From a virus (taxonomy: Duplodnaviria; Caudoviricetes): DNA of 44,862 nucleotides. A program made the position numbers and the translations under genes. This document shows, piece after piece, positions 2,037 to 43,785 of this stretch. Within the stretch, counting starts at the first letter, position 1; each line of letters starts with the position of its first letter. The notes under the pieces are model-generated. The model worked only from the letters and a program-made list of their open reading frames with translations, made no database searches and was not told the DNA's origin. Location of the stretch: positions 1 to 44,862 of IMG/VR virus record IMGVR_UViG_3300049142_000086. One strand, written 5' to 3'.

Positions 2037-2074
2037 CCGCACCCCTTCCCAACCGCACCAGCCAGGAGGACGCC

Positions 2075-5137: not shown

Positions 5138-5262
5138 GCCCCCTGCGAGGGCTCGTGCACAACCGCACCGCGGCGGGCCCCGCGGACGCCACCACCAGGT
5201 GGCCGCCACACCAAACCGTGTAGCAGGGGCCCCCTCTTGGCCCCTATCCGCGAGGGGCCACC

Positions 5263-5733: not shown

Positions 5734-5822
5734 CCCTTCCCCACCAGCCCCCGGCCGGGCCCGTGACGTACACGGGAAGGGCGCCACGACGCCCGGCCGG
5801 GCCTTCCCGAAGGACACCCGCC

Positions 5823-6706: not shown

Positions 6707-6722
6707 AGGAAGGAGCCCGCCG

Positions 6723-11869: not shown

Positions 11870-11880
11870 GGAGACCACCG

Positions 11881-17458: not shown

Positions 17459-17646
17459 GCGCCCGCCGGGCCGCGGTCGTCCACTACTGCCTGGCGGGCG
17501 TCTGGGCGCTGCTCGTGATCCCCACCCTGCTGTTCTGGAAGAACAGCGTCCTCTGGGTGGCCGCGATGTCGCTGTACGCGAACTTCGTCGGCCACCTCTC
17601 CGCGGCGAAAGCAAGCCGCGCCGAACAGGAAGCAGAAAAATCATGA
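17455..17646 (+). CDS. Small membrane protein
   Basis: 63 aa with two hydrophobic segments and overlaps on both sides. Confidence 0.65.
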   Translation: MSARRAAVVHYCLAGVWALLVIPTLLFWKNSVLWVAAMSLYANFVGHLSAAKASRAEQEAEKS

Positions 17647-18026
17647 AGATCCTCGGCCGAGAGCCCGCCCTGCTGCTGGGCCTCATCGCTGCCGCCGTGA
17701 AGCTCCTCGGATACGAGTTCGACGTGTCCGCCGGCGTCCAGACCGGCATCAACACCGTCGCCGCGGCCGTGGTCGGCCTCATCCTCGCGATCCTCGCCCG
17801 CAACGGGGCCTGGGCGGCCGCTCTCCTCCAGACCGCGCAGGCCGTCATGAGTTTGTTCGTCGGTCTCGGCCTGGACTGGTCCGCGGACCGGCAGGCGCTG
17901 TGGATGGGCGCGATCGCCGCGGGCGTAGCGGTCGTGGAGCGGTTCATGGTGACGCCGCCGCTGCCCACCACGCCGCTAGAGGAGTCCAGTCCCCTGACGA
18001 AGCCGCACGGCCCGCGGGCCGTCTAA
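17643..18026 (+). CDS. Holin
   Basis: MKILGREPA start, about 4 TM segments, located after the endolysin. Confidence 0.8.
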   Translation: MKILGREPALLLGLIAAAVKLLGYEFDVSAGVQTGINTVAAAVVGLILAILARNGAWAAALLQTAQAVMSLFVGLGLDWSADRQALWMGAIAAGVAVVERFMVTPPLPTTPLEESSPLTKPHGPRAV

Positions 18027-23315: not shown

Positions 23316-23645
23316 ATGATCGAAGAACTCGCAGCCTTCCTCCGCGCCCGGTACTCCGAAGCGCGCACCAACGGACAGGCACTGTTGGATGCCCAACCCG
23401 CCGGATCACCGCTGGCGTCGGTCCTACCGGACTTCTTCGACCTGGCAGCAGAGCAGCAGCGGGACAAAGTGCGAGCGATGGTCGACCAGCTCAACGCCGA
23501 CCTGAACTCCAAGCTCGGCATCGTCGCCCTATGCGAGACAGAAACTGAGGAGACCGGCGGGCGCACTCTGGCACTTCGCACGCTACTCCTTCTCGTCCAA
23601 CCGTTCTCACAGCACCCCGACTACCGCAGCGAGTGGCGGCCGTGA
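23316..23645 (+). CDS. DUF6221-like protein
   Basis: Characteristic termini ELAAFLRAR...HPDYRSEWRP; SD GAGGAG. Confidence 0.75.
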   Translation: MIEELAAFLRARYSEARTNGQALLDAQPAGSPLASVLPDFFDLAAEQQRDKVRAMVDQLNADLNSKLGIVALCETETEETGGRTLALRTLLLLVQPFSQHPDYRSEWRP

Positions 23646-24703
23646 CCGAGCAGCTCCCCGCCGTCCCGGCCGAGCGCGCCGCCCTCATCCAGAAGTGGGC
23701 GGCCCGGCACGGCATCGACACCGCCCACCGCCTCGCCCAAGCCGAAGACCTCGCCGACGCCGTCCGTCGCGAAATCGCCGCGGAGAACACCGAAGACACC
23801 TACGCCAAAGCCTGGCGCGTCTGGGAACGCTTCACCAGCACCCAGAAGTTTCCCCTGCTCGAGGGCTCCCGCGGCTCCCTCGTCGCCTACGTCGCCTGGA
23901 TGCTCCGCCAAGGCCGCACCGACGGCCACGGCTACGCCCCCAGCTCCGCGTCCACCATCCTCGCCGGAACCGTCGTCGAACTCCGCCGCCGCGGCGTCAC
24001 CGTCACCCGAGACGACCAAGCCGAAGCACGCCGCTCCCTCGACGGCCTCGCCGTCAAGCTGCTGAAGAACAAGGAACGCCGCGGCCGCGGCAAAGCAGCC
24101 GCCGCCCAAGTCCCCGACCTCTACCGCGTCGTCCGCGCCTGCCCCGACACCCTCGCCGGCCACCGGGACAAAGCCCTCATCCTCACCAGCTTCCACTACG
24201 CCGCCCGCGCCCAGGACCCCGCCGGCCTGCTCGCACAAGACGTCACCCTTCACCCGCGCGGCCTGATCATCTCCATCCTCACTGGCAAGACCAAGCACAG
24301 CGTCCGCGACGCCAAAATCCTCTACCAGAAGGACCCAGAGATCTGCCCTGTCGAGGCGTGGAAGGCGTACCGGGAACGCCTGGCCGCCGAGGCCGACCCC
24401 AAGTGGTCGCAGCCGGACGCGCCCGCGTTCGTCGGCATCAACCGCTGGGACGCTGTTACCGGGGGCATGGTCCCCGACTCCGTCACCCGCGCCATCAAGC
24501 GCATCAGCGTCCGCGCCGGAGTCAAACTCGCCTGGACCGGCCACAGCCTCCGCATCGGCCACGCATCCACCGCCCGCAAGCAGGGCAAGGACGCTATCGT
24601 CATCGCCGACCAGGGCGGCTGGGCACGCCACTCACGCTCAATGAACGGCTACTTCCAGATCGAAGACGGCTGGGACGACAACTCCACCGCCGACCTCACG
24701 TAG
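23642..24703 (+). CDS. Cre-like tyrosine recombinase
   Basis: SAM-like N-domain; complete catalytic set R (YAAR), K (GKTK), HSLR, W (GGW), Y (MNGY). Confidence 0.9.
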   Translation: MTEQLPAVPAERAALIQKWAARHGIDTAHRLAQAEDLADAVRREIAAENTEDTYAKAWRVWERFTSTQKFPLLEGSRGSLVAYVAWMLRQGRTDGHGYAPSSASTILAGTVVELRRRGVTVTRDDQAEARRSLDGLAVKLLKNKERRGRGKAAAAQVPDLYRVVRACPDTLAGHRDKALILTSFHYAARAQDPAGLLAQDVTLHPRGLIISILTGKTKHSVRDAKILYQKDPEICPVEAWKAYRERLAAEADPKWSQPDAPAFVGINRWDAVTGGMVPDSVTRAIKRISVRAGVKLAWTGHSLRIGHASTARKQGKDAIVIADQGGWARHSRSMNGYFQIEDGWDDNSTADLT

Positions 24704-24902
24704 CAGCGGGGGTCCGGGTTGGCGTCTGCCCCCACCGGATCTTCTCCGCGGCTTCTTCCTCGTCGACCAGCAGCCGGCCTTCTCCGCGGCAGTCGTCGCA
24801 GCGGACCCAGCTCGGCCCTTCGGCCTCCACGCCGGTGAACACGGACCCTTCCCCGTCGCATTCATCGCAGGTGAACTCGTACTCGCCGGGCACCAATTCC
24901 AT
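24696..24902 (-). CDS. Small DnaJ-type zinc-finger protein
   Basis: Two CxxCxGxG motifs (CDECDGEG, CDDCRGEG). Confidence 0.7.
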   Translation of the reverse strand: MELVPGEYEFTCDECDGEGSVFTGVEAEGPSWVRCDDCRGEGRLLVDEEEAAEKIRWGQTPTRTPAAT

Positions 24903-24940
24903 TGCGCTAATCCCTCTCAGTGAACGGAGTGTGATCCTAC

Positions 24941-25795
24941 TCAGCCCGCTGGTGTGTCCCAGAATCCGGTGTGGGCGACAGCGTCCGCGGTCACCGGGGG
25001 CTGCCGGTTCGCCAGCAGGGGCTCGGTGGAGCAAATCTGCTGGATCAGCTTGTTCGGGTAGTCGCTGCCGATGGGCCGGCCGCCCTGGCCGATGATGAGG
25101 GCGTGGACGCCGTCGGCGGGGCGGATCCGGCGTGGCAGGTACGCCTTGAGCGCGGCCACCGTGAGCGGCTCGAGGACGTGCTTCTTGCCGACGGCCTCGT
25201 ATGCGTAGTCGGGGGCGCGGATCTCCCAGGTGCCATTGCCAAGGTCGTAGAGGTGGCGGATGTCGACGCGGGTGACTTCGGCGGGGCGGAGGCCCTCGAG
25301 GAGGAGGAATGCCACGAGGCGGTCGCGGAGGTAATGGCGGGCGTGGTCGGGGCCCCACATGCCGATGCAGTACAGCAGGACGGAGCGTTCCTGGGGGGTG
25401 AGGCGGCGTGGGGGGCGGGCGTCGCGGTCGACTCCGGAGCGGAGCATGGTGAGGTCGGGGACGAGTCGGATGGCGCCGTGGTCCCGGGCGGCTTCGTAGT
25501 ACTGGGTGATGGCGGTGATGCGCCGGTCGTGGGTGAGGGCCGCGGCGGGGTGGTGCTGGGCGATGTGCGCGAGGGCGGCGGGCCCGTCGAAGGGCCGGCC
25601 GTCGAGGTGGTCAGTGAGGTAGGTGCCGGCCCAGGCGGCGATGTGCTCGATGCCGCAGTTGTAGGGGTCGACCGGGGGGTGCTGGCGGTCGCACCAGGTG
25701 AGCCAGCGGGTGACTTCGCGCTGGTACTCGATGCGGCTGGAGGATCGCAGGGGTGCGGTGTCGAGCCAGGTGTCGAGGAGTGCGCGCGGGTCCAT
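24941..25795 (-). CDS. Tyrosine-recombinase-fold protein lacking the catalytic C-terminus
   Basis: SAM-like N-domain and RDRL...GLRPAEV box I are present. The HxxRH position reads ADAVAH, and the protein stops 9 residues later with no Tyr. Confidence 0.75.
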   Translation of the reverse strand: MDPRALLDTWLDTAPLRSSSRIEYQREVTRWLTWCDRQHPPVDPYNCGIEHIAAWAGTYLTDHLDGRPFDGPAALAHIAQHHPAAALTHDRRITAITQYYEAARDHGAIRLVPDLTMLRSGVDRDARPPRRLTPQERSVLLYCIGMWGPDHARHYLRDRLVAFLLLEGLRPAEVTRVDIRHLYDLGNGTWEIRAPDYAYEAVGKKHVLEPLTVAALKAYLPRRIRPADGVHALIIGQGGRPIGSDYPNKLIQQICSTEPLLANRQPPVTADAVAHTGFWDTPAG

Positions 25796-25834
25796 GGCCC
25801 ATATTCTGCCTGCCCGGAATCCTGGTTCAAGATC

Positions 25835-25955
25835 TTCCGTAAAACCTCGGGACCCTCCCACTAAGGGGAGGTCGCGGGCGCGAGGGGCCGGGCTGGCTCC
25901 GCGCTCCGTACCACGACGGGCAACAGGGGCTGAGGTTCCCCGAGGTTTTACGGAA
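25835..25955. repeat. 17-bp perfect inverted repeat with an 87-bp spacer
   Basis: TTCCGTAAAACCTCGGG (25835-25851) and CCCGAGGTTTTACGGAA (25939-25955), each flanked outside by GATC. Confidence 0.9.
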
Positions 25956-26110
25956 AGATCAGGTTCGGGTGGGGAGTGGTTCAGGGGACCCTGTGGCGCT
26001 GCGCCGGAACCCACGCTACGGCCGGGGCGGGCCCGCGTTCCCCCTGCAACGCCGCCGGCGCACTCCGAGGGTGAGGAGGGCGCCGGCGGGCAGCCTGAAG
26101 CAGAGGACGG

Positions 26111-27475: not shown

Positions 27476-27874
27476 CTAGGCGGCGAGGCGGGTGTCGGTG
27501 CGCGTGAGGGGGCGGGTGGGGAGGTAGTCGCGGCCGAGTTCGCGGGCGATGAGCTGGGCTGCGCTACGGACCACGATGCCGCGCCCGGCGGGGGTTGTTG
27601 CCTCCGGCCGGTCCAGGACGAAGCCGATGCGGTGGCAGGTGTAGCTGATGATCCTGTCGACGAAGAAGGCGCGGGCGTCGCCGCGGAGGCGGCACATGGC
27701 GCGGACCTGGATGCGGCCGGCCTTGGTGGTGCGGATCTCGTAGGGCTCGATGGTGCGGATGGTCTCGGTGCCGTCGGTGTCGAGGTAGGTGATGGTGACG
27801 GCGTGCTGGCGGTCGATGGCGCGGTAGAGGTCGGTGAGGGTGCGGGTGGTGGTCTGGCGTGCGGTGAGCTTCAT
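27476..27874 (-). CDS. Stand-alone WYL-domain protein
   Basis: AIDRQHAVTITY...RTIEPYEI...AMCRLRGDARAFFVDRI matches the WYL consensus; no HTH or WCX domain. Confidence 0.85.
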   Translation of the reverse strand: MKLTARQTTTRTLTDLYRAIDRQHAVTITYLDTDGTETIRTIEPYEIRTTKAGRIQVRAMCRLRGDARAFFVDRIISYTCHRIGFVLDRPEATTPAGRGIVVRSAAQLIARELGRDYLPTRPLTRTDTRLAA

Positions 27875-27905
27875 GGTGGTGTCCCCCTTGCCGTGAACTA
27901 ACTCC

Positions 27906-27953
27906 ACTGTACCGCTCAAAGCATTGCAACACAATGCTCGAAGCGGCTATGGT
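27906..27953. promoter_or_regulatory. Back-to-back promoters overlapping a symmetric operator
   Basis: Operator CCGCT-N3-AGCATTG-N5-CAATGCT-N3-AGCGG; rightward promoter TTGCAA-N18-TATGGT, leftward TTGTGT-N17-TACAGT. Confidence 0.8.
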
Positions 27954-28106
27954 TGTGGTTGTTGGGGCGACCGCGCCTCAATCGACCGTGCCGAAAGCGG
28001 CATGGCGTCTCACTGCTCATTGGAGGAAACTGGCGTGGTACATGCCCCCACGCGCCGCCCCCCGACCTACTCGGCACGGCGGCGCCCACCGAAAGGACCC
28101 CGCCCC

Positions 28107-28928
28107 ATGGCAGGCTCCATCCGCGCCCGCGCCGCCAGTGCCGTCGCCAAGCTGAAGCAGCACGGCGACCACGACGAGGCAGCAGCCATCGAGTCGTTGC
28201 TTGCCCCCCGTGGCTACCTGCTGCTGAAGCGCACCGAGGAAGGGGAGACCAGTCCTCTGTCCTTGACGGTGACGGCCGACCTGAAGAAGGCGCTGACCGA
28301 CGCGGCCGAGGAGTTCGATGTCGTGCTGGACAGCCTGGCCGAGGAGGCATACCGGCTGGTGCTGGCCGGTCAGTGGCTTCCGCCGGAGGCCGGCCGCAGC
28401 AAGGGCGGCCAGAAGGCGGTGTTGCAGGTGTCCGTCGACAGCCGGCTCCGCCAGGAGGTGCAGGCGAAGCTGTCGGGCCTGTCGCAGGAGGCCGGGTATC
28501 GGGTCGCGGAGTCGAACATCGTCCTGTCGCACATTTGCGAGGAGTTGGGCGTTGAGCGTCCGGGGTCGGTGAAGGCGGAGAGCCTGGAGATGCGGTTCCC
28601 GAAGTCGCTGGTGCAGCACTGGGAGCGGCAGGCTGAGGCTTGCGGCCAGTCGTTGCAGGAGATCGTCGAGGGCCGTATTCCGGCTCTGGTGGACGGGTCG
28701 TGGGTGCCGGAGCGGAACGCGTACCTGACGTCGTCGAAGCGCGGGCCGCGTGAGAAGAGTTGGTCGGAGTCGGAGCGGCAGCGGTTGTGGCTGCCGGTCG
28801 ACAAGGATTTGCTGGCGGACCTGCGGGCCAAGGCCGATGAGTTGTCGGCCGAGCTGGGTTACCTGGTGTATCCGGGTGCGGTGGTCCGCGCGATTCTGAC
28901 TGATCGGCTGGGTGAGCCGGCCGAGTAG
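28107..28928 (+). CDS. Tandem four-RHH DNA-binding protein (candidate repressor)
   Basis: SD GAAAGGA; four strand-helix-helix units (PLSLTV, VLQVSV, SLEMRF, RLWLPV) arranged as an internal duplication. Confidence 0.65.
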   Translation: MAGSIRARAASAVAKLKQHGDHDEAAAIESLLAPRGYLLLKRTEEGETSPLSLTVTADLKKALTDAAEEFDVVLDSLAEEAYRLVLAGQWLPPEAGRSKGGQKAVLQVSVDSRLRQEVQAKLSGLSQEAGYRVAESNIVLSHICEELGVERPGSVKAESLEMRFPKSLVQHWERQAEACGQSLQEIVEGRIPALVDGSWVPERNAYLTSSKRGPREKSWSESERQRLWLPVDKDLLADLRAKADELSAELGYLVYPGAVVRAILTDRLGEPAE

Positions 28929-29016
28929 CGGTTCCGGGCGGGCCGGCCTGGACGCCGACAACCAGTTCCCGGCCCTTTCGCCCATCAATCTCACTGAACA
29001 ACCTCAAGGAGACCTC

Positions 29017-29934
29017 ATGCCGCAGGGCATCGAGGCCCCCGCCAGCATCACGGCGGAGGGCCAGACCTCGCACACCCTTTTCCAGGCCGCCCGTCCGGCC
29101 AACACCTTCGGATACACCCGTGAGCAGCAGATCGAGGCGCTGCGCAAGCTGCGGGAGCCGTTCAAGCCTGAGGAGATCCGCTACCTGCCGCGGATTTGGT
29201 GCCGTGCGTGCAAGAGCGCTGGCTGGAGCGGCTGCCAGCAGCACCCGGTCAGCAAGTGCGGGAAGTGCAAGCAGAAAATGCCGCGGGATGGCCACATCGA
29301 CTTGGCGTACGTCGGGCATGCGGAGGCGACGAACCGGCTGCTGAACGTGGACCCGTTCTGGGACTGGGAGCCGCTGACCGTGGACGAGCGGGGTCTGCCG
29401 CAGGTCGACGGGTACCGCGGGTTGTGGATCCGGTTGACGGTGTGCGGGATGACCCGCCTCGGGTACGGGCACGCCGGCGACAAGACGGGTGGCGACGCGG
29501 TGAAGGAGGTCATCGGCGACGCGATCCGGAACGCGGGGATGCGGTTCGGGATGGCGCTGGATCTGTGGACGTCGTCGGACCTGGAGATCATCGAATCGGG
29601 CGGCGCGTCGCTGGACGACAGCACGTCGGGCGTACGGGCCGAGCCCTCTCGACAGGCCCCTGCCACGACCGCGTCCCGTAAGACGGCGGAGCCGACACAG
29701 GAGAAGGAGCGGCAGGAGTCGCGTGAGGAGGCGTTCGCGCGGCTGACGGAGCAGTACCGGAACTGCTGGGGCAACGCGCTGGCCCTGGCGCAGATCCGGC
29801 TGGAGGGGAAGAAGCTCGGGTTCTCCGGGGACCGGGTGCAGGGGCCGCCGCCGGAGTCGAAGTGGATGACGTTCGACGAGCTGCTTGAGTCCCGCATCAC
29901 CGAACTGTCCGGATCGGAGGGAAGGGCCGCATGA
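29017..29934 (+). CDS. Rad52/Sak-like single-strand annealing protein with a Cys/His insert
   Basis: LREPF...LAYVGHAEATNRLLNVDPFWDW...KEVIGDAIRNAGMRFGMALDLW. Confidence 0.8.
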   Translation: MPQGIEAPASITAEGQTSHTLFQAARPANTFGYTREQQIEALRKLREPFKPEEIRYLPRIWCRACKSAGWSGCQQHPVSKCGKCKQKMPRDGHIDLAYVGHAEATNRLLNVDPFWDWEPLTVDERGLPQVDGYRGLWIRLTVCGMTRLGYGHAGDKTGGDAVKEVIGDAIRNAGMRFGMALDLWTSSDLEIIESGGASLDDSTSGVRAEPSRQAPATTASRKTAEPTQEKERQESREEAFARLTEQYRNCWGNALALAQIRLEGKKLGFSGDRVQGPPPESKWMTFDELLESRITELSGSEGRAA

Positions 29935-31553
29935 TGTACCGCCACGACAATGACGCACTCACCGTCATGGATTGGTTCTGTGGTGCCGGCGGTTCGAGTC
30001 AGGGCATGCATGCCGTCCCCGGCGTTCGTGTGGAGAGGGCCGCGAACCACTGGGAGCGGGCCATCCAGTCCCACGAGGCGAACTTCCCCGACGCCTCCCA
30101 CTACCGCGGTGATATCCGCAAGGCGCCGGTGTGGGCGTGGCCGGTGACGGACCTGTTCTGGGCGTCGCCGGAGTGCACCAACTGGAGCATCGCGAAGGGT
30201 AAGCAGCGCAGCTTCGAGAAGGCCGTCCAGGGTGACCTGCTGGACCTGTACGCGGAGATGGAGGCGGCGAAGTTCAAGACGGTCGATGAGGAGGACGACG
30301 GCCCGAAGGCGTCGGAGGAGGAAGAGTCCCGGGCGCTGATGGAGGAGGTCCCGTTGTACCTGCGCGGCGTGATCGAGCGGGGCGGTCTCGTGAAGGCCGG
30401 TGTGGTCGAGAACGTGGTGGATGTGCGGGCGTGGGCGGAGTGGGACCGGTGGCTGGGCGAGATCCACAAGATGGGCTACCGGACCCGGGTTATCGCGCTG
30501 AACAGCATGCACGCGGATCCGCGGTCGGTGCACAAGGCGCCGCAGTCGCGGGACCGGCTGTACGTCGCCTACTGGCACCAGTCGCTGGGACGGTCTCCGG
30601 ACTGGGACAAGTGGCTGCGGCCGAGGGCCTGGTGCTCGTCCTGCGAGGAGTGGGTTCAGGCGGTGCAGTGGTTCAAGACGCCGGGCCGGGACATGGGCCG
30701 GTACCGCGCGCAGTACGTGTACCGGTGTCCGCGCATTTCGTGCCGGAATCAGGTGGTGGAGCCGGAGACGCTTCCGGCGGCGGTGGCGATCGACTGGTCG
30801 ATTCCGGGACAGCGGATCGGGGATCGGGCCCGGCCGTTGGCGGAGAAGACACTCCGCCGGATCAAGGCGGGTCTGGAGCGGTTCGCGCAGCCGATCGTGG
30901 TTCCGGCCGGCGGGACGTGGCGGGATGGTGCGACGGCGGTGGGGGATCCGATGCCGACGCGGACGACGCGGGAGAGCAACGGCCTGGCGATACCGCCTCT
31001 GCTGATTCCGGTGGAGGGCAGGGATGGGAAGGAGCCGCGGTCGGCGCATGAGCCGCTGCGGACTCAGACGGCGCGGAACGAGACCGGGCTGGCGTGGTTG
31101 CCGTTCATCGCCGAGCTGCGCGGTGGCGGATCGGTGGCACGGCCGGTGACGGAGTCCCTGGCTACGGTGACGGCGTCGGGGAACCACCACGGTCTGTGTC
31201 TGCCTGCGGGCGCGTCGGAGCACATGCTGACCCCGTACTACGGCACGGGCGTGGCCCGGTCGGTGCGGGAGTCGATCGGGGCGCTGACTACGCGGGACCG
31301 TTACGCGTTGGTGCGCGGCGAGGTCGACATCGACGACGTGATGTTCAGGATGTTGGAGCCTCGCGAGATCGGCAGGGCGATGTCGTTCGCCGATGAGTAC
31401 ATCGTGTTGGGGTCGAAGCGGGAGAAGGTCCGCCAGTACGGCAACGCGGTGACCCCGAACGCGGCGGAAGTCCTGGTGTGCGCGCTGGTGGAGTGCATCA
31501 CTGGCGAGGACATCGACCGCTACGCCGACGAGCAGTTCGCCGTCGCTGCTTGA
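29931..31553 (+). CDS. DNA (cytosine-5) methyltransferase
   Basis: Motifs I FCGAGG, IV SPEC, VI ENV, VIII PQSRDR and X GNAV. Confidence 0.92.
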   Translation: MMYRHDNDALTVMDWFCGAGGSSQGMHAVPGVRVERAANHWERAIQSHEANFPDASHYRGDIRKAPVWAWPVTDLFWASPECTNWSIAKGKQRSFEKAVQGDLLDLYAEMEAAKFKTVDEEDDGPKASEEEESRALMEEVPLYLRGVIERGGLVKAGVVENVVDVRAWAEWDRWLGEIHKMGYRTRVIALNSMHADPRSVHKAPQSRDRLYVAYWHQSLGRSPDWDKWLRPRAWCSSCEEWVQAVQWFKTPGRDMGRYRAQYVYRCPRISCRNQVVEPETLPAAVAIDWSIPGQRIGDRARPLAEKTLRRIKAGLERFAQPIVVPAGGTWRDGATAVGDPMPTRTTRESNGLAIPPLLIPVEGRDGKEPRSAHEPLRTQTARNETGLAWLPFIAELRGGGSVARPVTESLATVTASGNHHGLCLPAGASEHMLTPYYGTGVARSVRESIGALTTRDRYALVRGEVDIDDVMFRMLEPREIGRAMSFADEYIVLGSKREKVRQYGNAVTPNAAEVLVCALVECITGEDIDRYADEQFAVAA

Positions 31554-31682
31554 AGCCGGGCCCGCCACGCTGCGGGCCCGATCAGAGGCCGCCGCGAGTT
31601 GGCCGGGGCCGGACGGGCCCCCTGTACCGGTCCGGCCCCCTTGTTCGTTCCCTTCCCCTTGATGTTGGAGGTGAGTGCCGCT

Positions 31683-31970
31683 GTGGCGGTTCGAACCGTG
31701 ACGGCCGCCGTGGCATTCGCTGCGGCGGTCGTCGTTTGTGCTGTGGCTGTGCGCCGGTCTCGGCGGTTGCGTCGCCAGTTGGTGGCGGAGCGGTTGATGG
31801 CTGGCTGTGTGAGGCGGGACAACGCGGTGCTGCTGCGTGAGCTGGAGGCGTTCCGGCGGCGTCTGGACCCGCTGCTGGCCCCGGGCGTGGTCGTGCCGGC
31901 CGCGGGCCCGGCCCCTGACCCTGCCGTCCCTGATCCGTTGTTTCCGCCGTTGGAGGGAGGCCCCCGATGA
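31683..31970 (+). CDS. Small membrane-anchored protein
   Basis: SD GGAGGTG and a hydrophobic N-terminus; start uncertain. Confidence 0.55.
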   Translation: MAVRTVTAAVAFAAAVVVCAVAVRRSRRLRRQLVAERLMAGCVRRDNAVLLRELEAFRRRLDPLLAPGVVVPAAGPAPDPAVPDPLFPPLEGGPR

Positions 31971-32806
31971 CCACTACCGAGAGGCTGCGCCGCGCGTGGC
32001 TGGACCACCCGTATTTCCGCTATAGGGGTTGTGCGCCGGACCCGGACGATCCGATGCGGATGGCGGGTAACCCGGATCTGCATGTGGGTGCCCATCATGG
32101 GCCGGATGCGTTCGTGCCGGAGGGGCAGAGGGAGCGGCGGGCGCGGGAGGACGCTGCGATCGAGGTGTGCGTGTCGTGTCCGGTGATGGTGGCTTGTGAT
32201 GCGTACGCGTCGTCGGTGACGGCGGACGGCAGGTTGGCGGAGCCGGACGGGGTGTGGGGTGGCCGGCGGGCGTTGGACCGCCACAAGGCGCTCATCAAGG
32301 CGCGGCATGCTGCGGTTCCGGCGCCGGACCGGGTGTTCCAGACGGAGCAGAAGCGGGCGGTGTTGCGGGCGTTGGCGCGGTGTTGGGAGCCGTTCGAGGT
32401 GGCGGCCGCGGCGGGGGTGGATGTGCGGACGGCGAACTGGCAGCGGTCGTCGTTGGTGCGGCTGTTGGGGTTGCCGAAGGGTGCGTCGCGGATGCGGGCG
32501 TTGGCTGCGGCGCGGGAGCGGGGTCTGTTGGAGGGGGTGGAGCTGGTGCCGGATGACGGGTCGGTGCCGGCGGTGCCGCCGCCGACTCCGGTGAAGGCGC
32601 CCGCTGCTGCGCCGGTCGCGGGTTCCGTGGCCGGGGTGGTTTCGGTGTCGGCTCGCCGGGCGGCTGGGGTCGCGGTGCTGTCTGGGCGCCGGGCCCGCCG
32701 GCGGGTGCAGGTGATGCCTGGTCAGTTGTCGCTCGATGACGCTCTCGCAGCCCCGGCTGCTGCTGTCGCTCTGTTCCCTGCTCGCCGTCTGGAGGCTGCC
32801 GCATGA
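31967..32806 (+). CDS. WhiB-family Fe-S regulator fused to a LuxR-like HTH
   Basis: C...CVSCPVMVAC...GVWGG, then TEQKRAVLRALA...EVAAAAGVDVRTA...LVRLLG...ARERGLL. Confidence 0.85.
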   Translation: MTTTERLRRAWLDHPYFRYRGCAPDPDDPMRMAGNPDLHVGAHHGPDAFVPEGQRERRAREDAAIEVCVSCPVMVACDAYASSVTADGRLAEPDGVWGGRRALDRHKALIKARHAAVPAPDRVFQTEQKRAVLRALARCWEPFEVAAAAGVDVRTANWQRSSLVRLLGLPKGASRMRALAAARERGLLEGVELVPDDGSVPAVPPPTPVKAPAAAPVAGSVAGVVSVSARRAAGVAVLSGRRARRRVQVMPGQLSLDDALAAPAAAVALFPARRLEAAA

Positions 32807-33258
32807 CCGAGATCCCCACCACCAACCCGATCGTCGACGAGGGCGAGCCGGCCGTGTCCGCGCAGGAGCGGGCCGAGTTCGAGACGATGCGCGTGGATGC
32901 GGTGCTGACCGGGCGGGCGATGTCGTCGGGTGAGTTCCTCGCGGGTCTGATCGCGGAGGCCCTGGTGGAGACGGTGGGCCGTCCGGACAAGCTGGCCGCG
33001 GACTTGTTCCCTGACGTGGATCCGGTGGTGGTGCAGCGGGTGTGGGATCGGGCGTTGGCGGTGGGGTTGTGTGCGGGGCGCCGGTCGGTGTCGCCGCGCC
33101 TGTACCGGGACGAGATGGCCCGGATAGAAGGCGCGTTGGCGGAGGCCGGGTTTCATGCGATGGCGGGGTTGGTGGCCCGGTCGCGGCGGTTGGTGGCGCC
33201 GGAGGTGCCGCATCCGGCGGATGGTGAGGTGACGCGTGGGCGTGGTTCGGCGCTGTGA
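32803..33258 (+). CDS. Hypothetical protein
   Basis: ATGA overlap, SD GGAGG, 151 aa. Confidence 0.7.
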   Translation: MTEIPTTNPIVDEGEPAVSAQERAEFETMRVDAVLTGRAMSSGEFLAGLIAEALVETVGRPDKLAADLFPDVDPVVVQRVWDRALAVGLCAGRRSVSPRLYRDEMARIEGALAEAGFHAMAGLVARSRRLVAPEVPHPADGEVTRGRGSAL

Positions 33259-33611
33259 TCAGTACGACGAGCGACACGTGGGAAGGGGCGGGGACAGGTG
33301 ACGGCTCGAACCGGTAGGCTGAGCCTTGCGTCAGACGTGCAGTCAGTTGCGAGGCCGCACGGAGGGCGTTCAGAAAAGTCGGAAGCCCCCGCTGCCACCG
33401 TGGTGGCGGTCCCGGTTTGCGAGGCCGGGACGCGAGGGCTGTCGACACCACACCGTTGCTGGACGAATGAAGGTGCCGACGTGGCAAAGCGTACCCGGGG
33501 TACTTCCCCTCATGACAGGCCCACCCGAAGTTTCTGCGGATCCGGCGTGAAGATCACACCGCCGACGCAGCCGGGCCCTGTCCCTTCAACCCACACAGTC
33601 GCGTGACCGCC

Positions 33612-34445
33612 ATGCGGCCGCCCTTCCCCTACTACGGGGCAAAGGGCCGGCTTGCCGGTCAGATCGTCGACTTGATGCCGCGGCACCGCGTGTACGTGGA
33701 GCCGTTCGCTGGTTCCGCTGCGGTGCTGTTCGCCAAGCCGTCTGCTCCGGTGGAGGTCATCAACGACCTGGACCGCAACGTCACCACGTTCTTCCGGGTC
33801 CTTCGGGACACACCAAACGACCTGGTCCGGGCTCTGCGGTTCACGCCGTACGCCCGGGACGAGTTCGCGGCCGCAGACCTCGCCGAAGAAGGGATCAGTG
33901 ATCTGGAGCGGGCCCGTCGGTTCTTCGTTCGCACGACGCAGGGCCACAACGCCGCCGGGTCTGGTGGTCGTGCTGGCTGGTCGAACGGGATAAGGGCGCG
34001 GCACACCGACGCCACCGCTACTCGGAACCTGGTCGAGCGGCTGGACCAGGTCGCCGACCGGCTCCGTACGGTCGTGGTCGACAACCGGGACGCTGCCGAG
34101 GTCATCGCCGCGCACGACGCCGAGGATACGGTGTTCTACCTTGATCCGCCGTACCTGTCGGGGACGCGTACCTGCGGCCGCGACTACGCGCACGAGGCGG
34201 ACGGCGACGACTTCCACCGAGGCCTCGCCGCGGTGCTGCACGGCGTGCAAGGTACGGTTCTGCTGTCCGGGTATCCGTCGGCACTGTACGACGAGCTGTA
34301 CGCGGGCTGGGACCGGATCGAGGTCACCGTCCACCGCGCTGCCACGAACTCCCGCGGCCGCACTGCGGTGCCGCGGGGCATAGAGGTCGTCTGGTCGAAT
34401 CGGCCGTTGAGCCGTCAGGTCTCCCTGTTCGAGGGGGCATCATGA
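33612..34445 (+). CDS. DNA adenine methyltransferase (Dam/D12 class)
   Basis: [21 protein letters not shown] and YLDPPY motifs. Confidence 0.92.
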
Positions 34446-34834
34446 CCGCTCAGACCTCGCCGGCCCGCTGGCACCTGACCATCACGTGCCCCCGACCCCG
34501 CAACCGCGCTGTCGACGACTTCCACGTCCGGCCGGAACGCGTGGCGAACGTAGCCGCGATGTTTCTTGGTGCTCGCGCCGAGCTGGTCCTGACCGCGCGC
34601 ACGGTCCGGTTCAGCATCACCCGGGAGCATCCGATCACCGACGTCGGCTACTGGCAGAAGCAGTTGGCGTTCGCCCTGGACTGCCTCTACCTCGACGTTG
34701 AGCGCGACGGCCGCCGCGACTTCCGTCTGCCTCGTCCGGTCCGGGTCGAACTGCGTGAGACGGACGACCAGAACCTCCTCGCCGTCAAGGCGCAGGGGCA
34801 GGCCCAACCCATTGAGGGAGAGCGAGTGACTTAG
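34442..34834 (+). CDS. Hypothetical protein
   Basis: ATGA overlap, 130 aa. Confidence 0.65.
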
Positions 34835-34860
34835 CGAGTAGCTGAGGCGGGAGGTCCTGC

Positions 34861-35004
34861 CGCTCCCTTGCCGGGGAGCGCTTCCTCTACCGCCTGGGCC
34901 GTATCCCGGCTGGTGTTTGCCGACACCTTCCGAGCCTCACGGCCCTCGTACCACGGCCCGGATTGCCGTCCGAGCTAAGGCCCATCGGGTGCCACCCCGA
35001 GGGC
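34861..35004 (+). repeat. Array of hairpins with TTGCCG loops upstream of the replication gene
   Basis: CGCTCCC-TTGCCG-GGGAGCG, GGTGT-TTGCCG-ACACC and CGGA-TTGCCG-TCCG, plus TCGGG-TGCCAC-CCCGA. Confidence 0.8.
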
Positions 35005-35085
35005 GAGTGCTTCTTCCACCGAAGCGAACCACCCACCGAAGCGGGGGCCCTTTTGTGCTCCCGCGTTACCGGAAGCAGGTACATA

Positions 35086-36552
35086 GTGCCTCAGCGCACC
35101 CCGTCTTGTCAGCTTGGCAATCCCATGCCGGGCGATTCGCACCGTATGTCCCCCCTCCCGGGCGACACCCAGTGCCCCCAAACGCAACCCGACACGCCCA
35201 CCCACACCACCAAAACCGAACACGCAAACGAATCCGAGCACGGCACGCGGCTCCTGGTCACCACAGCCCACCAGTGGCTCCACACCACAACCGGCCGCAT
35301 CACCACCGACCCCCACTCCTGGATGACCGCCGTCCACTGGGTCACCGACCAGACCACCAAGGGCCACTACACGCCCACCCAGACCCACGGCCCGAAGTGG
35401 GGCCCCACCACCGTCGCCGTCGCCCAGGAGATCGCCGCGCTGAAGGAATGCCGGCCGTCCGTCGACTACCTCGCCCGCAAGTTGAAGATCAGCGCCCGCA
35501 CGGTGAAGTACCACCTCGCGATGCTCCGCGAGGTAGGGCTGCTGGTGTACCGGACCAAGGGCACCCGCCTCCGCGGCGAAGGCAACCGGGCATCCGTCTT
35601 CGAGCGGACCATCCCCGCCACGTTCGACGAAGCCATGGGAATCCGCACCATCGGCGAGGGTGCAACGCGCCGCCCCGTCGGCGCCGCACCGGAGTCCCGC
35701 AGCCTGCTCGGGAAGCTCGCGAAGAAGGCCGCCCGCAAGGCCCGCCGCCCCCGCCGCCGCACCCCCGCTCCCGACCAGCAGCGTTGCACCCTAATGCAGG
35801 GGGGTACTACTCGCACTTCTTCTGCGGCTGGTACTCACTTCCCCCCTGAGGCAGAGCTCGCAAGCGGGAAAGCCAAGTCCCCCACCCCCAAGTCGTCGAA
35901 GCGCAAGCCGCGGACCCTGAACAAGGTCGGCCGCCGCTACCAGCTCGCCGGCGAACTCATCGCCCGCGTTCCGTGGCTGAAGGGGGCCTCCCGATCCCGC
36001 ATCGCGTGGATCGTCCGCCACGTCGCCGACGCCGGCTGGACCACCCTCGAAGTCCAGGCCGCAGCCGAACGCATCGTCTCCGACAAGGAACCGCGCCGCC
36101 CGTCCGCCGTCCTCGCGTACCGGCTCGCGTCCTGCCACCTGCTGTACACCACCCCCGAGCGGCGCCGGGTCCTGGTGGAGGACTGGCAGGACTCCCGCCG
36201 CGCCCAGCAGACCCGCCACGCCAAGCACGCCTTCCAGTACCTCGGCACCGGCCCCCGCAGCATCGCCGCCCGCCGCGCCGTGGACGAGGCGTTCGCCGCC
36301 ATCCAGGCCCGCCTCGCCCCCGCCGTGGAGGAACCCGCCGACCAGGCGCCACTGATGCTCGAGGACCTCACCAAGGACGAGATCGTCGCCCTGCGCCTGG
36401 ACGCCATGAGGGACCCGGCGCTGATCCTGTCCGCGCTCGAGCTGCTCGGCGAACGCGACACCCGCCGCCTGTACACCAACCGCCTCGTCGACCAGACCCT
36501 CGCCCTCGAGACCATCCACGCCCGCCGCGACACCCTCGCCCCCGCCTTCTGA
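35086..36552 (+). CDS. Probable replication initiator (winged HTH)
   Basis: CRPSVDYLARKLKISARTVKYHLAMLREVGLL HTH typical of phage/plasmid initiators; start uncertain. Confidence 0.7.
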   Translation: MPQRTPSCQLGNPMPGDSHRMSPLPGDTQCPQTQPDTPTHTTKTEHANESEHGTRLLVTTAHQWLHTTTGRITTDPHSWMTAVHWVTDQTTKGHYTPTQTHGPKWGPTTVAVAQEIAALKECRPSVDYLARKLKISARTVKYHLAMLREVGLLVYRTKGTRLRGEGNRASVFERTIPATFDEAMGIRTIGEGATRRPVGAAPESRSLLGKLAKKAARKARRPRRRTPAPDQQRCTLMQGGTTRTSSAAGTHFPPEAELASGKAKSPTPKSSKRKPRTLNKVGRRYQLAGELIARVPWLKGASRSRIAWIVRHVADAGWTTLEVQAAAERIVSDKEPRRPSAVLAYRLASCHLLYTTPERRRVLVEDWQDSRRAQQTRHAKHAFQYLGTGPRSIAARRAVDEAFAAIQARLAPAVEEPADQAPLMLEDLTKDEIVALRLDAMRDPALILSALELLGERDTRRLYTNRLVDQTLALETIHARRDTLAPAF

Positions 36553-36562
36553 GGAGACCGCG

Positions 36563-36895
36563 ATGCCCGAAACCCCCGGCCACGTCGACTTCCACACCGT
36601 GCCGCTCGCCAACGGCGGCACCTGGACCCGCCTGTCCCGCCTGACCGACGGCCGCGTCATGTGCTGCCTCTGCTTCGAGTACGTCACCCGCGACCAGCTC
36701 AACCCCGTAGACGGCGGCGTGGAAGACGTCTGCACGACCTGCGCTCGCAAGGAAGCCGCAGTAGCAGAACTCCCCGCGAACGTCTGCCGAGTGACGCTGG
36801 ATCCCGGCTGGGGCGGCGACATACAGGTCTGCACGCGCCCCCGAGGCCATGCCGGATACCACCGGGACGACCGCGCGATGGGAGAGACGGCATGA
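36563..36895 (+). CDS. Zinc-finger hypothetical protein
   Basis: CCLC, CTTC and C...C...H...H; SD GAGGAG. Confidence 0.7.
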   Translation: MPETPGHVDFHTVPLANGGTWTRLSRLTDGRVMCCLCFEYVTRDQLNPVDGGVEDVCTTCARKEAAVAELPANVCRVTLDPGWGGDIQVCTRPRGHAGYHRDDRAMGETA

Positions 36896-37683
36896 CGGAC
36901 ACCCCGCAACGGTCCGGGAGGGACCTCGCCCGGCAGGCCCTCGCCGCCTACAAGGCCACCGCCCGCACCCAGCCCAGCACCCCCGCCAAACCGGCCCGCA
37001 AGCGGACCGTCCGCCGCGGCTCCGGCCGCGACCCCGTCACCCTCGCCACCGCCATCACCGCCCTCGGCGCCGACCTGCCCCTCGAAGCAGGCATCGCCGG
37101 CGGCAACATCCTCGACCAGTGGCCCACCCTCTGCCCCCAGTACGCCGACCGCGTCCAGCCCGTCGCCTACGACGAACAGCGGGGCCGCCTCGACCTCCGC
37201 CCCGGCAGCCACGCCTACGCCGCCCAGCTCCGCATCCTCGGCGGACAACTCGCCAAGCAGATCAACGACAAGATGGGCAAGCCGGTCGTCCGCAGCATCC
37301 GCGTCCTGCCCGTCGGCACCGTGCCCCAGCACGACGCGTATACCGCGGTATACGCCTCACCCGCCGAGACGGCCCAACCGGAGACGCCAGTGAAAACCCG
37401 GGAGACCGCCAGCCCCGGCTACCGGGCCGCCCTCGCCCACAAGCCGCCACGCGAACCGCAGAACCCCTACATCGCCGAAGCGATCCGCGCCCAGGACGCC
37501 GCCCTCCGCGCCAAGCGCCTGCCCGAGTCCGACGACCGCGACGCCTACTGGGCACAACGAGACGCCGCGGAGAAAGCCGGGCCCGAGCCCGGCAGCATCG
37601 ACGCGTCCATCGCCGCCGCGATCGCCCGCAAACGGCAAGAGCAGACCGGCAGCGAGCCCCGCCGACTCTTCGGCGCCGCCTAG
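36892..37683 (+). CDS. dciA: DciA/DUF721-family protein (helicase-loader-like)
   Basis: SGRDLARQAL, GRDPVTL, ILDQW and AYAAQLR...LAKQIN...VRSIRV match the actinobacterial DUF721 pattern. Confidence 0.78.
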   Translation: MTDTPQRSGRDLARQALAAYKATARTQPSTPAKPARKRTVRRGSGRDPVTLATAITALGADLPLEAGIAGGNILDQWPTLCPQYADRVQPVAYDEQRGRLDLRPGSHAYAAQLRILGGQLAKQINDKMGKPVVRSIRVLPVGTVPQHDAYTAVYASPAETAQPETPVKTRETASPGYRAALAHKPPREPQNPYIAEAIRAQDAALRAKRLPESDDRDAYWAQRDAAEKAGPEPGSIDASIAAAIARKRQEQTGSEPRRLFGAA

Positions 37684-38910: not shown

Positions 38911-39086
38911 TGCCCGCCACCATCACTCTGCCGAAGACCGCCTACCCGCGACCGCCCCTGCTCCACCAGCGCGACGAGCTGTTCCTCGAGCCTCGCTACC
39001 GGGACGGTGAGCTGTACGCGGAAGCCGAGGACGCCGAGGATGAAGACGGGGAACGGGTAGGTGGTGACCATTGGTCACCACCTTAG
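38910..39086 (+). CDS. Small acidic hypothetical protein
   Basis: 58 aa, translationally coupled. Confidence 0.45.
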   Translation: MPATITLPKTAYPRPPLLHQRDELFLEPRYRDGELYAEAEDAEDEDGERVGGDHWSPP

Positions 39087-39134
39087 GGTCAGAACGACGA
39101 CAAGGTGGTGACCATTGGTCACCACCTTGTCGTC
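39059..39134. repeat. Twin perfect palindromes (candidate centromere/parS)
   Basis: AGGTGGTGACCA-T-TGGTCACCACCT at 39059-39083 and again within 39096-39134 (19-bp arms); centres 44 bp apart. Confidence 0.85.
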
Positions 39135-39148: not shown

Positions 39149-40078
39149 CTACTGGGCTGATGCCGCCAACTCCTTCATTAGCTGCTCCACCGCCCGCTGG
39201 AGATCCTCCGCCTCACGCCGAGCCCGCTCCGGATCCTTCTGCGCCAACTCGCGCAGCCTCGTAACCACCTGCACCGACTCACTGGACTGTGCCGCCGACC
39301 GCGTCGTCTCCAGCGCGGGCTTCACCGGCTCCTTCTCCAAGACAGGCGTGAGTTCCTTGGGAGGCGCATACCCGAGAAAGTTCGCCGCCTCCTTGAGAGA
39401 AGTGTCCGTGACGCTGCCGTGCCGGGCAGCCTCCAGCCACGTCGCCCGCACCGCTTCGGTGCCATGCGTATCCAGGATCGGAACCAGCACCCGCAGTGGG
39501 CGCTCCTTCAACTCCTGAGTGGTGATGTCCTCGAGGGCCTGGGCAACCCCCAGCACACGGATGATGTTGTTCGCCTGGTGCTTCTTGATGTTGAAGCGGG
39601 CCGCGGTCATCTCACCGAAGGTGTCGTAACCCGCCGTCTTGTGGAGCTCCTCTTTTTTGAGGGCCCTCAGCCGCAGACCGAGACCGATCAGCCGCTGCTG
39701 CTCCGCGCGCTCGTGGTTCGCGCGGGCCGCGTACTGCACTGCCATGATGCCGCGGGAGTAGAACTCCAGCCGCTCCTGCGGGTCGCTGCTTTCTGGCTCG
39801 GTGAACTCCGGCATGGGCAGGTAGCCCGACGGCCGGGCAGCGGGAGCAGCCGTCGCGGTGACAGCTCCGTTGGCCACTGCGGGTTCAGCCGTCGGCGCGG
39901 GTGCGGCAGGCGCAGCCGCTGCGGGAGCCGGCACAGCAGGCGCCGCGGCTGCCTGCCTTCGCTTCGCCTGCTCCTCCTCCCACTTCCGCATCTGTTCCTC
40001 ACGGCCCCCGCCCGCAGCGGCCCCAGCGCCAGCGACGACCGGGATGACGGGCGCCTCCTTCGGCTTGTACTTGCTCAC
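39149..40078 (-). CDS. ParA partner protein (non-canonical ParB-like)
   Basis: Coupled to parA by GTGA; basic N-tail, Ala/Pro linker, LHKTAGYDTFGEM...FNIKKHQANNII HTH-like core and a C-terminal coiled coil. Confidence 0.7.
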   Translation of the reverse strand: MSKYKPKEAPVIPVVAGAGAAAGGGREEQMRKWEEEQAKRRQAAAAPAVPAPAAAAPAAPAPTAEPAVANGAVTATAAPAARPSGYLPMPEFTEPESSDPQERLEFYSRGIMAVQYAARANHERAEQQRLIGLGLRLRALKKEELHKTAGYDTFGEMTAARFNIKKHQANNIIRVLGVAQALEDITTQELKERPLRVLVPILDTHGTEAVRATWLEAARHGSVTDTSLKEAANFLGYAPPKELTPVLEKEPVKPALETTRSAAQSSESVQVVTRLRELAQKDPERARREAEDLQRAVEQLMKELAASAQ

Positions 40079-41220
40079 GCCGTCAGCTCCTTTGCCAGCG
40101 TGCGCATGACCTCCGCCTGAGGCGAGTCAGGCGCGTAGTCCAGCAGCGGCACCTCGTAGTCGGACGCCTCCCGGCCCTCGATGGCGTCCTTCAACGTGGC
40201 CAGCGTGCCGGGCGTAGTGAGCTCGTTCCACCCGTCGTAGAAGGCCCGTGTCACAGTGCCCTTGCGGGAGTCGTAGGCGTTGACGACGAACCCCAGTTGG
40301 TCGACGACAACACCCGTACGCCGCTCCACGGCCTCGATCTGCCTGTTCAGCAAGTTGTAGGCATTGAAGCTGGCCTTGTCCGACCACACCGGGATGAGGA
40401 TCCCTGACCGCTCGATCAGCTCGCCCGGCCGGCGCTGCACGTAGTGGATGGCCAGATCCATGGCCAGGCCCAGGTTGGGCGGACCGTCCAGGACGATGAC
40501 GTCGTAGTCCTGCTCGATCGGGGCGAGGGCGTTGATGAGGGCGCGGTCGCGGCCGATCTGCATGACCGCAAGTTCCGCATCCATCAGGAAGGCGTCCTGG
40601 TCCGCGGGCAGCACGTGGAGCCGGCCACCGAACCGGTCGTGGGGAAGCGCGACGAGAGACCGGGCGATGTGGCGTTCGGCCTTGCCGGTCATGTGCCGCA
40701 GCAGGCTCTCCCCGCCTTCGGGAACGCCCTCGATCTTCAGTCGTGCTGAGAGGTGCCCCTGGGGGTCGTAGTCGACAAGGAGGACTCGCTTGCCGGACTC
40801 GGCGCAAGCCTGGGCCAGTCCGGAGGACACGAACGTCTTACCGACACCGCCTTTCTGGTTGCCGACCAGGATCCGCTGAACGGGCTGCTCGGTCAGCCGC
40901 TGCTCAGGGGAGGGGTAGGCGTCCAGCCACAGGGTGATGGCCTGGGCCATGCCCTGCACCTTGGTGATGCCGCGCTGCTCGCATGCATCAGTGAACCGTC
41001 CGGGCAGGCCGAGGGGGAGGTACACGCCCCACGACTTTGCCCTCTTGACGTCGACATCTGGGGCAGCGGGCGTCTCGAGCCACAGGTTGATCGCCGAGGC
41101 GGCGGCGTCCTGCATGTTCAGGCCGTGCTCTGCGGCACGGATCCGCAGGTCGCGCCGGAGGTCCGGCGTCAGATTGACGAGCAGTTTTTCGCGTGATGAA
41201 TCCGCGCTTGGGTGGGTCAT
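40075..41220 (-). CDS. parA: ParA-family ATPase with two N-terminal RHH-like units
   Basis: Deviant Walker A KGGVGKT, DYDPQG and DGPPNLG. Confidence 0.93.
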   Translation of the reverse strand: MTHPSADSSREKLLVNLTPDLRRDLRIRAAEHGLNMQDAAASAINLWLETPAAPDVDVKRAKSWGVYLPLGLPGRFTDACEQRGITKVQGMAQAITLWLDAYPSPEQRLTEQPVQRILVGNQKGGVGKTFVSSGLAQACAESGKRVLLVDYDPQGHLSARLKIEGVPEGGESLLRHMTGKAERHIARSLVALPHDRFGGRLHVLPADQDAFLMDAELAVMQIGRDRALINALAPIEQDYDVIVLDGPPNLGLAMDLAIHYVQRRPGELIERSGILIPVWSDKASFNAYNLLNRQIEAVERRTGVVVDQLGFVVNAYDSRKGTVTRAFYDGWNELTTPGTLATLKDAIEGREASDYEVPLLDYAPDSPQAEVMRTLAKELTA

Positions 41221-41406
41221 GGCGAGCAAATTACCAGTCGATCACTGTGTGGGAGCCCACCGGGCCGCCGACAAGGAGACGGTTCACGCGAAGAGAGCAG
41301 AGCCATGCCGGAACTGACCGAACCGACCAGGCCCTGGCTCTACCCCGTGACGAGTTCCGCGACTAGACTCGCGTCGTCTGACGAGCATGCACTCGTGAGG
41401 TCTCAA

Positions 41407-41711: not shown

Positions 41712-42110
41712 ATGCCCGCAGCGGAGCCGGCCGACCCCACACCGCCCACGACCCCCATCAGCGTCGAGGGCGCGGCCGTGATCCCCATCCGTGCGCGCCG
41801 CGCAGGCCGCGGCGCCCCTCACAGGGGGTGGAACCCCATGGACACCCGACCCACCCCAGGCCCGGCCGGCCAGCCCGGCAGCCAGCCCGACGAGGTCCTG
41901 GCCCTGCTCGCCGACGACATGGAAAAGGCGTTCAATGCGATCGGGCGCAGCCTCACCAACGACGAGACCGCGGCCGTGTACGCACGGACCCTGGCCCTCG
42001 TGGAGCACACGCTGCGCGGCGCCGCCGCCACCGGCATCCTCACCGAGGAGCAGCGACAGGCCCTCGCCGAGCTGATCGACGGCATGGCGCAGGCACCGCG
42101 GTTCGTGTAA
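41712..42110 (+). CDS. Hypothetical protein
   Basis: SD GGAGGAG/GGAGA; helical C-domain; start uncertain. Confidence 0.6.
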   Translation: MPAAEPADPTPPTTPISVEGAAVIPIRARRAGRGAPHRGWNPMDTRPTPGPAGQPGSQPDEVLALLADDMEKAFNAIGRSLTNDETAAVYARTLALVEHTLRGAAATGILTEEQRQALAELIDGMAQAPRFV

Positions 42111-43343: not shown

Positions 43344-43381
43344 TGAGCATTGCCACCCAATGCTCATAGCGGTACGGTGGA
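43344..43381 (+). promoter_or_regulatory. Second copy of the operator/promoter
   Basis: TGAGCATTG-N5-CAATGCTCA overlapping TTGCCA-N17-TACGGT. Confidence 0.8.
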
Positions 43382-43449: not shown

Positions 43450-43785
43450 GTGGCCGTGATGACGCACGCCTCCGCACGCCTCGAAACCGACTACAACACC
43501 CTCCCGGCCCCCATCCAGGACGCCTTCGACCAGCTCATGCAGCAGGCCGACACCGCCGGCACCCACCAGCACTACTTCGAGCTCATGGCCCGCGCCGCCA
43601 GCCTCATCGGCATGCCGCTCCCCGCCAGCGGCGACATCCGGCGCTGCGCCTGCTCCTGCGTCTGCGGCTGCATCTTCGACGCCGAGGACCCCGACGCGCA
43701 CGTCATCGAGTGGACCGGCGGCTACAACCTCGGCCGCATCCAGTGCCCCACCTGCTACGACCGCCACCCCGAAACGGAGTTCTGA
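43450..43785 (+). CDS. Cys-rich hypothetical protein
   Basis: CACSCVCGC...CPTC; first gene after the promoter. Confidence 0.7.
   Translation: MAVMTHASARLETDYNTLPAPIQDAFDQLMQQADTAGTHQHYFELMARAASLIGMPLPASGDIRRCACSCVCGCIFDAEDPDAHVIEWTGGYNLGRIQCPTCYDRHPETEF

Follow-up and report, generated by a model that had tools for sequence, protein, structure and literature searches.

Several described phage systems come close to the arrangement reported here. The immI region of phage P22 combines the RHH repressors Arc and Mnt with the antirepressor Ant. The repressors P1 C1, phiC31 Rep (which has in-frame isoforms) and L5 gp71 each act as a single repressor at many promoter-overlapping operators, without a self-cleavage domain. 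In Acidianus filamentous virus 6, AvtR is described as a tandem RHH protein, with its units in one chain, that acts at several genomic sites, as a repressor of its own gene and a regulator of a neighbouring one (PMC5569661). As for WYL proteins, the factors PafBC, DriD, SiwR, BrxR and CapW are described as having a WYL domain with conserved loop arginines (PMC10693628), and RspWYL1 is reported to join RHH and WYL in one chain (PMC6547453).

The locus analysed here, in which a tandem RHH gene faces a stand-alone WYL gene, would by analogy be Arc/Mnt-like in fold, P1 C1-like in operator layout and AvtR-like in its joined RHH units. Its likeness to immI lies in a putative RHH repressor beside divergent overlapping promoters, in a half-site pair about one turn apart and in weak Arc-like matches. 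Unlike in immI, the units are fused in one chain, the operators are genome-wide, the RHH protein is apparently the main repressor, and the opposite gene encodes either a WYL or an Arg-rich protein, neither of which matches the Ant family. With P1 C1, phiC31 Rep and L5 gp71 it has the distributed-operator layout in common, while fold and operator differ; two starts may give isoforms here as in phiC31 Rep. The likeness to AvtR is one of architecture, with no sequence link seen; AvtR is archaeal and has two units, whereas two- and four-unit forms occur here in bacterial phage-plasmids. The lone WYL domain shares the loop arginines of the WYL transcription factors, but is without HTH, WCX and RHH, is replaceable and has a degron-like end; in contrast to RspWYL1, the RHH and WYL genes are separate and divergent in all loci. 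The module is real and probably represents a variant form of RHH-based phage repression whose regulon is distributed; it is undescribed in the open-access literature, in which no paper on it was found.

The window, i.e., the whole stretch of 44,862 nucleotides that was analysed, is half of a Streptomyces phage-plasmid of the pZL12/pSAM1 type. Pfam and PHROG matches identify head, tail and lysis genes, two tyrosine recombinases, a single-strand annealing protein, methylases, a WhiB-like protein and ParA, and it is the head, tail and lysis genes together with ParA, in the order seen in pZL12, that place the element in this type. Homologues are found on Streptomyces plasmids of 86-102 kb. pZL12 (genes pZL12.30c/pZL12.31), pSLE1 and pSAM1 share the gene order of the window and each have this divergent pair with its operators, the RHH genes being annotated as hypothetical; pSLE1 has been described as syntenic with pZL12 (PMC4487206). 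Other parts of the window include a convergent pair of tyrosine-recombinase-like genes (23633-26014), the second of which is highly diverged, a ParA-like gene (40075-41229) in which about 115 residues with no family match precede the ATPase domain, and two palindromes, GGTGGTGACCATTGGTCACCACC, 3' of the ParA operon (39054-39132), possibly a partition site.

The divergent locus comprises the following features:

27476-27874, minus strand: stand-alone WYL protein (132 aa, ending in -LAA; Pfam PF13280), first gene of the leftward operon
27906-27934, minus strand: predicted leftward promoter TTGTGT-17-TACAGT (-35 at 27934-29, -10 at 27911-06), read by eye, with its layout found in 29 loci
27912-27946, no strand: operator O1, a 35-bp dyad with the core GCATTGC-AAC-ACAATGC at 27921-27937
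27924-27953, plus strand: predicted rightward promoter TTGCAA-18-TATGGT (-35 at 27924-29, -10 at 27948-53), read by eye, conserved
27957-28004, plus strand: 5' leader of the RHH mRNA, predicted to form two hairpins (fold z -2.9), with similar arms in relatives
28000-28016, no strand: candidate operator O2, GCATGGC-GTC-TCACTGC (14.3 bits), just 5' of the ribosome-binding site, without a promoter
28035-28928, plus strand: tandem four-RHH protein, likely repressor, of 297 aa from GTG 28035 or 273 aa from ATG 28107

The original prediction started from the dyad CCGCT-caa-AGCATTG-caaca-CAATGCT-cga-AGCGG, which is present at 27912-27946, and from the overlap of the -35 boxes of the two opposite promoters, which, read by eye, amounts to one shared base; a sigma-70 scan called neither promoter at its threshold. 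The significance of O1 rests on conservation, because its pairing (12 of 17 positions) is not striking alone: at least 12 paired positions are also reached at 26 places in the window. The layout of -10 box, heptamer, N3 or N4, heptamer and -10 box is kept in 29/29 loci compared, a set that omits L028, L029 and L032, which have WYL without a divergent RHH-type gene, and L004, identical to L002 in length and match. Together with the divergent pair in pZL12, pSLE1 and pSAM1, this bears out the conservation of operator and synteny that had been proposed as a check. The O1 heptamers are nearly palindromic (GCAWTGC), with centres 10-11 bp apart, a spacing that would fit two RHH2 modules, and within a locus the symmetry extends to the positions flanking the core (5.6/11 vs 4.0/11 for shuffled pairings).

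Further operators were found with a site matrix, one of them in the window:

43347-43378, plus strand: operator O3, GCATTGC-CAC-CCAATGC, over the promoter TTGCCA-17-TACGGT
43450-43785, plus strand: first gene behind O3 (111 aa), with no family match

In most relatives, the same gene of about 110 aa is preceded by an operator. At a cut-off of 15 bits, below which the O2 of the window falls, the scan of 19 genomes gives 95 sites, with 2-9 in 18 of the 19 and none in W14, compared with 0-1.7 in each shuffled genome. A TAnnnT box at 16-19 bp, the spacing expected of a -10 box, accompanies 72 of the 95 sites (background 0.56%), which thus sit on promoters. More than half of the sites (55/95) are distal, and the matrix was built without them. 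They resemble the O1 of their own genome, with a mean rank of 3.2 of 17 (9 expected; the ranks are not kinship-independent), and carry its spacer in 46/54 cases; pZL12 and W09 have N4 at O1 and N3 at their distal sites. O2 could be parsed by pattern in 23/29 loci, with the spacer of O1 in 22 of these 23, and its status is weaker because its left half doubles as a hairpin arm. A host factor was considered as the dyad binder and is disfavoured, as the half-sites differ from phage to phage.

These sites bear on the simplest alternative, in which the dyad would be merely two back-to-back promoters of the same consensus and no operator. Such a reading could draw on the -35 boxes, which lie within both O1 heptamers, and on how common a 12/17 pairing is in the window; it is nevertheless very improbable, given that 57 sites keep both heptamers with a promoter on one side only, that O2 has no promoter and that the outer positions are symmetric within loci.

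The right gene had been described as a 273-aa protein with four RHH-like units. The four units stand as a prediction, whereas the size needs correction, because translation likely starts at GTG 28035, preceded by GGAGG, which gives 297 aa. This upstream GTG is in frame in 23/23 loci where it was parsed, and a second start may lie at ATG 28107; as an inner AGGA-type word is found 5' of a second start in 24/29 loci, two RHH isoforms are possible. An AlphaFold model built on 64 homologues (pLDDT 86.7) predicts three N-terminal helices followed by four units of a beta-strand and two helices, at residues 48-86, 103-147, 160-195 and 224-268 of the 273-aa form. In Foldseek, the top matches are F-plasmid relaxosome chains of 104-118 aa, which we take to be the tandem-RHH protein TraY (prob 0.93-1.0, E 0.016-0.08), and no row reached E 0.001. 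At the sequence level, the protein has no Pfam or PHROG match at the usual limits. No Pfam RHH family exceeds its cut-off among the 64 homologues, with weak matches to CopG_antitoxin in 7/64, RHH_3 in three and RHH_1 in one. Other weak matches are to VapB26 (E 0.11) and to Arc-like proteins (PHROG E 0.011; Atlas 0.88), Atlas searches giving only leads below 0.9. As a single query against viral contigs and a phage collection it found nothing. The family is present in 19/19 genomes (with a profile built from these same genomes) in two forms, of two units (~150-195 aa) and four units (256-318 aa). In module trees, whose deep support is weak, the four-unit forms fall in two separate groups, which suggests two duplications. 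In W07 (79698-79914; L012), the match to the RHH gene is split over two frames, apparently through a frameshift or an error in sequencing, and all six operators are intact.

A conventional repressor was looked for as well. As originally noted, no recognisable XRE/cI-type repressor or S24 peptidase is found among the 64 ORFs of the window (Pfam), and the RHH protein likewise carries neither the XRE HTH nor the S24 peptidase of CI/LexA-type repressors, so that RecA-dependent self-cleavage is unlikely. Because the window is half of the element, a repressor elsewhere was sought in relatives. S24 occurs in one of 20 related records (W12) and in none of the other 19. HTH_3, tested in four phage-plasmid records, is matched twice in pSLE1 and weakly in G002, with no match in G001 or pZL12. 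In a Pfam scan of 69 of the ~120 called ORFs of G001, GntR, LuxR-type and WhiB regulators were found and XRE was not. In W12, the S24 gene and, on the same plasmid, three ATATTGC-GAC-GCAATAT repeats without promoters account for the stretches 17637-17975 and 86628-87044.

The question of which phage protein binds the dyads was approached through trees and co-variation. On the RHH tree, the O1 spacer requires two changes (0/500 shuffles as low; 21 rows), compared with five on the WYL tree (28/500 shuffles as low; the same 21 rows), the trees not being kinship-independent. The RHH module co-varies with the distal operators (r 0.36-0.39, p 0.015-0.02, in a test that is not kinship-free), whereas its beta-strands, which are predicted to read the DNA, show no such co-variation (Mantel r 0.15, p 0.18). 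The RHH protein is the likely binder, although co-variation does not single it out. Another conserved phage protein might instead bind the dyads, leaving the RHH protein a Cro/Ner-like or purely self-regulating role. Two candidates come into question here: the product of 41712-42110 (132 aa; homologues in 19/19 genomes), which co-varies more strongly with the distal operators (r 0.64, p 0.001, n 12; the best of 15 genes tested), and the WhiB-like protein, favoured by parsimony, with two changes of the half-site label on its tree vs four on the RHH tree. This reading is unlikely, however. The former protein has no family or feature match pointing to DNA binding and is one of 15 genes tested, the WhiB-like gene of pSAM1 is hardly expressed and varies little (2-28 counts) in the published expression data (PMC11302927), and the start of the RHH gene itself is bracketed by O1 and O2. 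The WhiB-like protein is accordingly disfavoured as repressor, and the 41712-42110 protein is a candidate co-repressor or antirepressor.

Expression data are available for pSAM1, where the homologue of the RHH gene is SAM23877_RS36555. In the published counts, this gene has 288-1483 reads in 37/37 libraries, compared with 2-71 for WYL, 2-43 for a bet fragment 3' of the RHH gene and 0-15 for the capsid (PMC11302927, supplementary file 18). In young MP5 culture, the RHH gene exceeds WYL ~40-fold and bet ~25-fold per kilobase. A highly expressed RHH gene with little transcript downstream is what a repressor active in lysogeny, with a terminator behind its gene, would show. Between MP24 and MP72, the three pSAM1 genes behind distal operators go from 53 to 8274, from 6 to 13648 and, for the homologue of the 43450-43785 gene, from 0 to 106 normalised counts, while WYL goes from 6 to 83 and RHH from 554 to 1248 (PMC11302927). 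The rise by 72 h is thus 100- to 2000-fold for the distal-operator genes, 14-fold for WYL and 2-fold for RHH. WYL tracks the distal-operator genes across 13 conditions (Spearman 0.83-0.96). In the same data set, co-regulation is not specific, because operator-free genes rise too: the transfer operon is up in HT medium, and the capsid gene correlates at 0.64-0.79, with low counts. Virions are reported to contain almost no pSAM1 DNA (PMC11302927), so that pSAM1 may be defective or only partly released.

The left gene had been called WYL-only, and WYL is indeed the sole Pfam family in it (E 1e-12, residues 12-78 of 132); an N-terminal HTH and a C-terminal WCX are absent, the domain beginning at residue 12. 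R62, R64, R68, A131 and A132 are invariant in 66/66 aligned proteins among 451 homologues. The predicted linkage to RHH genes is found in most homologous loci. In 18 loci picked by RHH, WYL comes first in 11 (in one as 26 residues only) and behind an HNH gene in one, i.e., 12/18, and an Arg-rich protein occupies the other six. Of 13 loci picked by WYL (12 of 44 plasmid matches plus pZL12), 10 have a divergent RHH-type gene. The HNH endonuclease gene is inserted at 2107-2550 of L001, in the order operator, HNH, WYL. L028, L029 and L032, in which the same lone WYL family stands without a divergent RHH-type gene, belong to larger linear plasmids and a Kitasatospora plasmid.

At the genome level, WYL is found in 14/19, and the five genomes without it are precisely those that have the Arg-rich family, with the operator intact. 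WYL as the operator binder is rejected, since the operators persist where it is absent. The swap between the two families takes five changes on the RHH tree, the same as in shuffles, and WYL proteins are 74-80% identical even though their partner RHH proteins sit on distant branches. The Arg-rich protein (112-119 aa, phrog_10890, 178 homologues) is unrelated to WYL; its model (pLDDT 93) has no Foldseek match and, in a wider structure search, resembles winged helices of the MerR/Xis type only weakly (Z 5.3, below 8; rmsd 2.7; 53 aligned). Both slot families end in an invariant AA, and 24 of the 27 complete left proteins end in LAA, which resembles the ssrA degron. AA ends are also present in several early proteins, namely the annealing protein, methylase, WhiB-like and DciA-like proteins (29017-37683, 44204-44626), suggesting wide Clp tagging, and in the tail tube protein. 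The slot thus always holds a protein that likely is unstable and binds nucleic acids, and its sequence does not follow the lineage of the repressor. This fits an effector acting on a conserved target better than a dedicated sensor.

This bears directly on the trigger that had been proposed, release of the RHH protein by a WYL sensor. On sensing single-stranded nucleic acid, WYL would inactivate the RHH protein, acting either as a split sensor or as an Ant-like antirepressor with positive feedback. The divergent pairing speaks for this, and so do a layout that recalls P22 immI, the invariant loop arginines, of the kind described as required for sensing in SiwR and PafBC (PMC10693628), and the fusion of RHH and WYL in RspWYL1 (PMC6547453). 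Against it stand the five genomes without WYL, the swaps no better than shuffles, the high identity of WYL proteins beside distant RHH partners, an operator geometry that follows the RHH tree, and the near silence of WYL in pSAM1 when the operator-led genes are off, which means that WYL could amplify induction but hardly start it, as judged from the published counts (PMC11302927). WYL release is therefore dropped as the main reading and given only a small chance; WYL is likely a repressed early gene and not the trigger. The fuller version, a RecA-free lysis switch in which the single-chain four-RHH protein would be the master repressor of the family, Clp-degraded WYL with single-stranded nucleic acid would strip it from its operators in trans and the Arg-rich protein would be an interchangeable antirepressor, is likewise doubtful.

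Downstream of the RHH gene, the recombination and methylation genes of the original description were confirmed as a single-strand annealing protein and a cytosine methylase:

28936-28983, plus strand: predicted stem-loop, likely terminator, 3' of the RHH stop, with the loop GGACGCCGACAACC (z -1.9)
29017-31553, plus strand: single-strand annealing protein and cytosine methylase, with which the recombination/replication genes begin

A stem-loop with z <= -2 follows the RHH stop in 20/28 loci. The loop GGAYGCCGAYAMCC (28950-28963 in the window) is conserved 3' of the RHH gene in 12/19 genomes, with extra copies in W04 (73531), W07 (45837), W08 (69140), W09 (39965), W12 (30368) and W15 (44230), and may be a protein-binding RNA site. 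It was considered as a WYL-specific site, which is rejected, as it shows no link to slot type. A further alternative is an N-like antiterminator in the left slot: WYL, which has an Sm-like fold, or the Arg-rich protein would let transcription past the stem-loop behind the RHH gene. The first-gene position of the slot, as that of lambda N, the degron-like ends, the stem-loop and the conserved loop with its further copy in six genomes are consistent with this. Yet the loop motif accompanies either type of slot protein and is lacking in several genomes of both types, the Arg-rich protein weakly resembles a DNA-binding winged helix, and in pSAM1 the reads of bet and methylase stay flat at MP72 while WYL is up 14-fold (PMC11302927), which together make antitermination distinctly unlikely.

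The reading preferred here is that the RHH protein is probably a plasmid-state repressor with distributed operators. The RHH-repressed plasmid-state switch of the original prediction is thus retained on the strength of the predicted fold, the genome-wide operator-promoters, the absence of S24 from 19/20 records and the expression of pSAM1, with binding itself putative. The RHH protein would bind paired heptamers over its own divergent promoter and about four distant promoters. Two RHH units would fold into one pseudo-dimer reading one near-palindromic heptamer. Heptamers 10-11 bp apart would be spanned by a pair of these modules, or by two copies of the two-unit protein, covering the -35 box. 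The RHH gene would limit itself via O1 and O2, and the stem-loop behind it would hold the recombination and methylation genes off. One symmetric operator alone does not account for the difference between an active right promoter and a silent left one. Once repression is lifted, the leftward and distant operons would switch on together, and the first leftward product, WYL or the Arg-rich winged-helix-like protein, would act after release as a short-lived nucleic-acid-binding effector on a conserved target.

Phage-plasmids of the pZL12 type are common in Streptomyces, with 44 plasmid records matched by the WYL gene alone, and the mechanism of their quiescence is undescribed in the open-access literature found. 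The either/or occupancy of the left slot is a natural experiment on the role of a lone WYL domain. If the preferred reading is true, it names the repressor and the operators of these phage-plasmids, adds a predicted tetramer-in-one-chain RHH design that seemingly arose twice, and would provide a tight promoter-repressor set for Streptomyces.
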